Below are positions 63,677 to 64,000 of a stretch of 64,000 bases of DNA, in pieces. Position 1 is the stretch's first letter. Every line of letters starts with the position of its first letter. The DNA lies in assembly GCF_003334335.1 (NCBI RefSeq), contig NZ_QOWQ01000003.1. One strand, written 5' to 3'. The notes beneath the pieces were generated by a model. The model was not told the DNA's origin, made no database searches, and saw nothing but the letters and a program-made list of their open reading frames with translations. The position numbers were made by a program, and so were the translations under genes. Source of the stretch: Escherichia coli (GTDB lineage: Bacteria > Pseudomonadota > Gammaproteobacteria > Enterobacterales > Enterobacteriaceae).

Positions 63677-63925
63677 TCATTTCCCGTTATGAATGACTTT
63701 CCGTTGTTGCGCACCTTCCATCAGGACTTCAGGAGCCACGAAGAAGTCAATGTTGAAATAAGTATCGTCAGTCATGGCTTCAATGTTGTGCCACTTTTCT
63801 GGAGGGAACACCGCAAACTGCCCCGCTTCGATAAGGATCACCTGATCAGGCTCTGCACTGTGTTCATCAGCGTAGCCGAGATATTTGACCGCCCCATGCA
63901 TAACGGAAAGGCGTGGGTAAACCCC
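63677..63925 (-). pseudogene. yeaR: yeaR (DUF1971) truncated at its 5' end by an IS186-type insertion
   Basis: Reading frame is intact from the stop (63677-63679) up to the GGG codon at 63923-63925, then meets an in-frame TAA (63938-63940) 13 codons upstream of the first ATG; upstream sequence is the IS repeat, not yeaR. From memory, K-12 YeaR is 119 aa (...KGTRPGVYPRLSVMHG...), so only codons 38-119 remain. Confidence 0.7.
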
Positions 63926-64000
63926 ATAAGCGCTAACTTAAGGGTTGAACCATCTGAAGAATGCGACGCCTCGGTGCCTCGTTAAGACGATGCCTCGCGT
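63925..64000. mobile_element. terminal 76 bp of an IS186-type (IS4-family) insertion sequence; rest lies outside window
   Basis: CATAAGCGCTAACTTAAGGGTTG at 63925-63947 matches the 23-bp IS186 terminal inverted repeat as I recall it; it abuts a C-run (gggtaaacccc), consistent with IS186 preference for G/C-run targets. Confidence 0.75.
63933..64000 (-). CDS. 3' end of the IS186-type transposase ORF (partial)
   Basis: Minus-strand frame ...ARHRLNEAPRRRILQMVQPLS ends with TAG at 63933-63935 inside the terminal repeat, the usual layout for IS4-family transposase genes. Only 21 codons are visible. Confidence 0.4.
   Translation of the reverse strand, partial: ARHRLNEAPRRRILQMVQPLS

Follow-up and report, generated by a model that had tools for sequence, protein, structure and literature searches.

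The window, that is, the whole stretch of 64,000 nucleotides of Escherichia coli DNA analysed here, very probably breaks off 76 bp into a copy of IS186, an IS4-family element of 1.34 kb encoding the DDE transposase InsL, which, judging from the sequence, was transposed into yeaR at a recurrent natural hot spot. The yeaR reading frame is disrupted, being split at codon 38, and its site is a recurrent target of IS186 rather than the place of an event private to one strain. The finding is an ordinary one: features of this kind, IS186 insertion into yeaR included, are already known, and RefSeq already annotates yeaR::IS186 in hundreds of genomes. Of the element, no more than 76 bp fall within the window; that the source strain also has the transposase, the opposite inverted repeat and another copy of the target duplication is concluded from other genomes.

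The IS186 end and the interrupted yeaR gene

At its right edge, the window reads directly as GGCGTGGGTAAACCC immediately followed by CATAAGCGCTAACTTAAGGGTTGAACCATCTGAAG, and runs on to base 64000. The sequence starting at 63925 is CATAAGCGCTAACTTAAGGGTTG. This is IRR, the 23-bp inverted repeat that terminates IS186 on its transposase-distal side (63925-63947), and 53 bp more of that end of the element follow it. The IS186 copy thus occupies 63925-64000, where the first 76 bp of its 1339 bp are cut by the window edge. Its orientation is taken from L001, a K-12-derived genome in which window positions 63400-64000 are found exactly, and its transposase gene lies on the minus strand, in the same direction as yeaR. 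All 76 bases are identical to IS186A of K-12 MG1655, including those beyond the inverted repeat (63948-64000). The repeat itself, which the initial annotation had attributed to IS186, is found unchanged at either end of MG1655 IS186A and of the full L001 copy. Of the 5426 complete E. coli genomes, 2144 contain the 76-base end, which matches 8422 places at about 100% identity (E = 3e-31), the median per carrying genome being 3 and the maximum 22; such a number of near-identical matches indicates a multi-copy mobile element and excludes a chance resemblance.

The initial annotation had also noticed a minus-strand open reading frame ending with TAG inside the repeat and had read it as the 3′ end of the transposase. 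The stop codon is indeed located at 63933-63935 and its frame remains open as far as the window edge (63933-64000, minus strand), but in full copies this frame is a 62-codon ORF starting with GTG (4534-4722 in the ORF list of L001, with its translation) and not the transposase. The transposase coding sequence is found at 4697-5809 of L001 on the minus strand, and its stop codon corresponds to window-equivalent positions 64096-64098, 172 bp into the element and 96 bp past the window.

In MG1655, the site is empty and yeaR is intact, with 119 codons, as the initial annotation had supposed. Alignment to this gene and codon arithmetic show that the window retains coding bases 112-360, namely codons 38-119 and the stop codon (82 codons plus stop; 63677-63924, minus strand), base 63925 being assignable equally to yeaR or to the IS. 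The insertion point is codon 38 and the first 37 codons are located beyond the window edge, in agreement with the 82 retained and 37 missing codons first counted. RefSeq describes this fragment as a pseudogene 'missing N-terminus', and the annotation of L001 gives yeaR as two pseudogene pieces. Read upstream, the yeaR frame runs into ...RWFNP*VSAYGVYPRLSVMHGAV, in which the TAA falls within the inverted repeat and precedes Met46 by 13 codons, where an in-frame stop upstream of the first ATG had been reported.

YeaR is a DUF1971 protein of solved structure (3BB6), related to the N-terminal domain of TehB. The gene yoaG, which lies downstream of yeaR in the yeaR-yoaG operon and shares its nitrate/NO-responsive promoter, is intact in the window as a 60-aa ORF (63491-63673, minus strand), the same sequence being annotated yoaG in L001 and MG1655. 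Literature cited in PMC6307192 describes the yeaR-yoaG promoter as responsive to NarL and NsrR. We infer that YeaR is lost through the insertion, and that 1.3 kb of IS now separates the operon promoter from the 3′ fragment of yeaR and from yoaG. Residual yoaG expression would then need read-through out of the IS, and the insertion probably leaves yoaG silenced or deregulated. Such read-through is possible, since the transposase gene points toward yoaG in the orientation of the window. A simple consensus scan of a full IS186 copy and its flanks revealed no promoter-like site, and a consensus scan for terminators over the same sequence revealed two weak hairpins of terminator type, which does not exceed the chance expectation. 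These scans yield no usable promoter or terminator prediction, and hence no basis for predicting the expression of yoaG.

Leaving the IS aside, the window and MG1655 positions 1815913-1879837 are colinear and differ by 20 substitutions but not by any indel, which supports the IS as the only structural departure from K-12. The claim that the IS is the only place where the window departs from K-12 is therefore correct at the structural level. The source strain is very closely related to K-12, of phylogroup-A type, but is not K-12 itself. A 25-kb query taken across the junction found no perfect match in one piece; the best matches are either a few bases different or, while identical in all else, contain an additional insertion of about 0.8 kb. 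The 20 substitutions span window positions 82-60390; 17 are located in genes, 12 of them nonsynonymous (e.g., chbC R110P, ynjE L66P, topB A262T and dgcJ S346C are among the changes) and 5 synonymous, a ratio which is near neutral, as expected for a very recent divergence. Two matches to the Rfam small RNA ES036 (CssrF) were also found, at 307-349 and 7453-7495 (55.5 and 42.9 bits, for a gathering score of 37.6), just downstream of katE and nadE; rather than sRNA genes, these may be hairpins of terminators or of a REP-like kind.

Complete copies and the target site

The element at this site in L001 is complete, with 1339 of its 1339 bp identical to MG1655 IS186A and with perfect 23-bp inverted repeats at its ends. 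More generally, the 196 to 197 genomes sharing the junction of the window carry an IS4-family transposase, the second inverted repeat and the target duplication, all within 1.35 kb. The 370-aa protein of the syntenic copy scores 133 bits against the NCBIfam model NF033592 (IS4 family transposase; curated cut-off, 115), which is consistent with an IS4-family transposase. The three MG1655 copies, IS186A, IS186B and IS186C (encoding InsL, and named 'IS421 family' in RefSeq product names), have the same 23-bp repeats, the same 370-aa IS4-family transposase and likewise a 10-bp target duplication; they differ in location alone, as MG1655 has no copy in yeaR.

Because the far side of the element is outside the window, the IS186 end could in principle border a larger IS-mediated rearrangement, an inversion or a deletion produced by recombination between IS186 copies, in which case the 5′ end of yeaR and leuE would not be found beyond it. 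IS186 is present in several copies per genome, and recombination between IS copies is described as common in E. coli in PMC5009759. A 151-nt query across the left junction was covered in 197 genomes and the corresponding right junction in 196, so that one genome may be such a case; however, this also means that 196 of the 197 genomes with the left junction possess the right one, and hence that almost all carriers have simple, complete insertions. In addition, each of the six copies inspected at the site (L001, L006, L018, L019, L020 and L021) is a simple insertion with leuE beyond it. A rearrangement is accordingly very improbable for the source strain.

Similarly, since only the terminal 76 bp are visible and repeats are classic sites of assembly breaks, these bases could represent a truncated remnant, a solo IS186 end or an assembly error that wrongly joined sequences at a repeat. 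Against this, the junction is the same, base for base, in 197 independently assembled complete genomes, which carry full-length elements, and the round number at which the window ends (64000) indicates slicing and not the end of a contig. We regard this possibility as extremely improbable, and the consistency of the other genomes with the same junction leaves a rearrangement or a truncated copy only a very slight likelihood overall.

The reading of a complete, simple insertion is also borne out by the five copies checked at the sequence level (L001, L006, L018, L019 and L021), all of which have an inverted second repeat and a 10-bp direct repeat, GGGTAAACCC, and are 1339 bp long except that of UMNK88. 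In K-12 backgrounds, excising the IS together with one copy of the duplication gives back 3 kb of MG1655 sequence without a single difference. The UMNK88 copy (L018, 6076-7418) is 1343 bp long; it aligns to IS186A with four gaps of one base each, and its transposase is annotated as frameshifted. The extra bases probably stem from homopolymer errors in an old assembly rather than from true decay. The GenBank feature for IS186A (188-1532 of L005; MG1655 15387-16731) measures 1345 bp. On either side it extends 3 bp past the inverted repeats that delimit the 1339-bp unit, and these surplus bases are part of the duplicated target, GGATCACTCC.

In the window, the left copy of the target-site duplication is located at 63915-63924 (10 bp, or 11 bp with the ambiguous C at 63925 included), the direct repeat being the one that flanks the element in the five checked copies. 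The run GGGTAAACCCC, which the initial annotation had pointed out next to the junction as fitting a preference for G/C runs, is located at 63915-63925. Before insertion, the yeaR site was GTGG-GTAAAC-CCCC, as seen in MG1655, in which 7 of the 8 flanking positions match the motif GGGG(N6)CCCC, with the mismatch in the left half-site. For IS186A in MG1655, the reconstructed site is GGGG-ATCACT-CCCC and the duplication GG-ATCACT-CC, a register shared by the yeaR site. In PMC5009759, the motif 5′-GGGG(N6/N7)CCCC-3′ was derived from 59 reconstructed sites (68 detected) in mutation-accumulation lines. It is a preference, not a strict rule, with published exceptions 1 to 2 bases off. The yeaR site, one base off the canonical motif, fits this preference.

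Drawing on established knowledge of IS186 and of the IS4 family, the DDE transposase InsL would bind the 23-bp terminal inverted repeats and would recognise the palindromic target formed by a G-run and a C-run, in this case GTGG-GTAAAC-CCCC against the consensus GGGG(N6)CCCC. The ends of the element would be joined to cuts staggered by 10 bp and centred on the palindrome, and the repair of the gaps would duplicate GGGTAAACCC on either side.

Across window positions 1-64000, GGGG(N6)CCCC with at most one mismatch occurs 6 times, against 16.3 +/- 4.3 times in dinucleotide-preserving shuffles, 100 of 100 of which contain at least 6. This apparent depletion could be an avoidance of IS186 targets or a mere effect of codon usage.

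Recurrence of the insertion among E. coli genomes

The insertion had been described as strain-specific in the initial annotation, a view that the survey of other genomes contradicts. An orientation-blind query of 73 nt (50 nt of flank and the 23-bp repeat) recovers exactly 452 of the 5426 complete E. coli genomes; 197 of them carry the orientation of the window, while 255 have the mirror-image junction, in which the same yeaR flank is joined to the other end of IS186 in the opposite orientation. The two orientations are encountered in closely related backgrounds. Among K-12 derivatives, the CV601 lineage has the orientation of the window and ET12567 the opposite one, and both revert exactly to the MG1655 sequence upon removal of the IS and one copy of the duplication. 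Opposite orientations are likewise found in the related porcine ETEC strains UMNK88 and UMNF18. The avian pathogenic (APEC) O78:H51 background has the same insertion, the same duplication and the same orientation as the window, within flanks that are 98.5% identical to those of the window.

Insertions of IS186 into yeaR have also arisen de novo in several laboratory-evolved MG1655 lines, according to Hoeksema et al. 2018 (PMC6307192). As in the window, the recurrent insertions described there are in the yeaR coding sequence, and they likely occurred at the same base. They differ in that they appeared under antibiotic selection, whereas the insertion of the window is found in a background resembling that of a natural isolate, 20 SNPs from K-12.

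The alternative that a single ancient insertion was inherited by descent, without repeated targeting, has some basis, because many carriers are closely related: the flanks of most top matches are only a few SNPs from the window in 25 kb, and the counts are certainly inflated by clonal expansion. Clonal relatives among the carriers, such as near-identical clinical isolates, imply that the number of independent insertions is lower than 452. However, common descent does not account for an identical position in both orientations, for an empty site in MG1655 when two K-12 laboratory lineages carry the element in opposite orientations, or for the same insertion within flanks only 98.5% identical to those of the window. 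Furthermore, the IS copies show 100% identity with IS186A, and the laboratory events in PMC6307192 arose de novo. As the sole explanation, common descent is hardly conceivable and is rejected by the orientation and K-12 pedigree data. Taken together, the two orientations, the empty MG1655 site, the K-12 and ETEC pairs, the diverged APEC flanks and the laboratory events argue for independent insertions, and the yeaR site is a recurrent hot spot of IS186. A consequence of such a hot spot is that the presence of an IS at a given site is unreliable as a strain marker.

As a separate observation, the APEC O78:H51 strain E19025 also carries a degraded IS200/IS605 element, consisting of tnpA and TnpB/InsQ pseudogenes, between yeaQ and yoaG (L021, 3974-5615). 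The yeaR-yoaG locus of this strain has been hit by two different mobile elements.

Occupancy of the site and its meaning

The yeaR site is occupied in 8.3% of complete genomes and in 21% of IS186 carriers, and represents about 5% of all IS186 copies. Two other hot spots, the lon promoter (known in E. coli B) and fimA, are comparable in that their targets are also composed of a G-run, N6 and a C-run and are used recurrently in either orientation. They differ from yeaR, which has GTGG in one half-site, in matching the consensus perfectly. With the same type of orientation-blind query, the lon promoter (GGGG-AAACAT-CCCC) was found occupied in 56 genomes, the 12 matches listed being all from laboratory strains of the E. 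coli B lineage, and fimA (GGGG-CCGCAA-CCCC) in 44 of the 2745 genomes having that flank, as compared with 452 genomes for codon 38 of yeaR. The occupancy of yeaR is 8 to 10 times that of these hot spots, which is only a mildly new point.

A third perfect consensus target, GGGGCGCCGACCCC, is located inside the window itself, in the msrB-gapA intergenic region (46680-46693; MG1655 position 1862592), upstream of gapA and 17 kb from the yeaR site. The orientation-blind query detected IS186 at this target in 0 of 5422 complete genomes. The differences in occupancy between the off-consensus yeaR site and the perfect sites indicate that the quality of the motif alone does not predict natural occupancy. 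Tolerance, with yeaR being dispensable and the gapA promoter not, and persistence must contribute to occupancy, and positive selection possibly does as well. It is conceivable, though unlikely, that codon 38 of yeaR is the most occupied chromosomal site of IS186 in natural E. coli, owing either to an extra targeting determinant or to selection for the loss of yeaR-yoaG.

In practical terms, the value of the finding is that of an annotation note: yeaR is a pseudogene in the window, and a small, poorly characterised, nitrate/NO-induced gene has been knocked out. Beyond this, the fact that a single off-consensus site holds about 1/20 of IS186 copies bears on how IS186 chooses its targets and on whether the loss of yeaR-yoaG is neutral or advantageous. 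If there were selection for this loss, fluoroquinolone or nitrosative stress would be examples of conditions favouring it, as hinted by the laboratory-evolution data.
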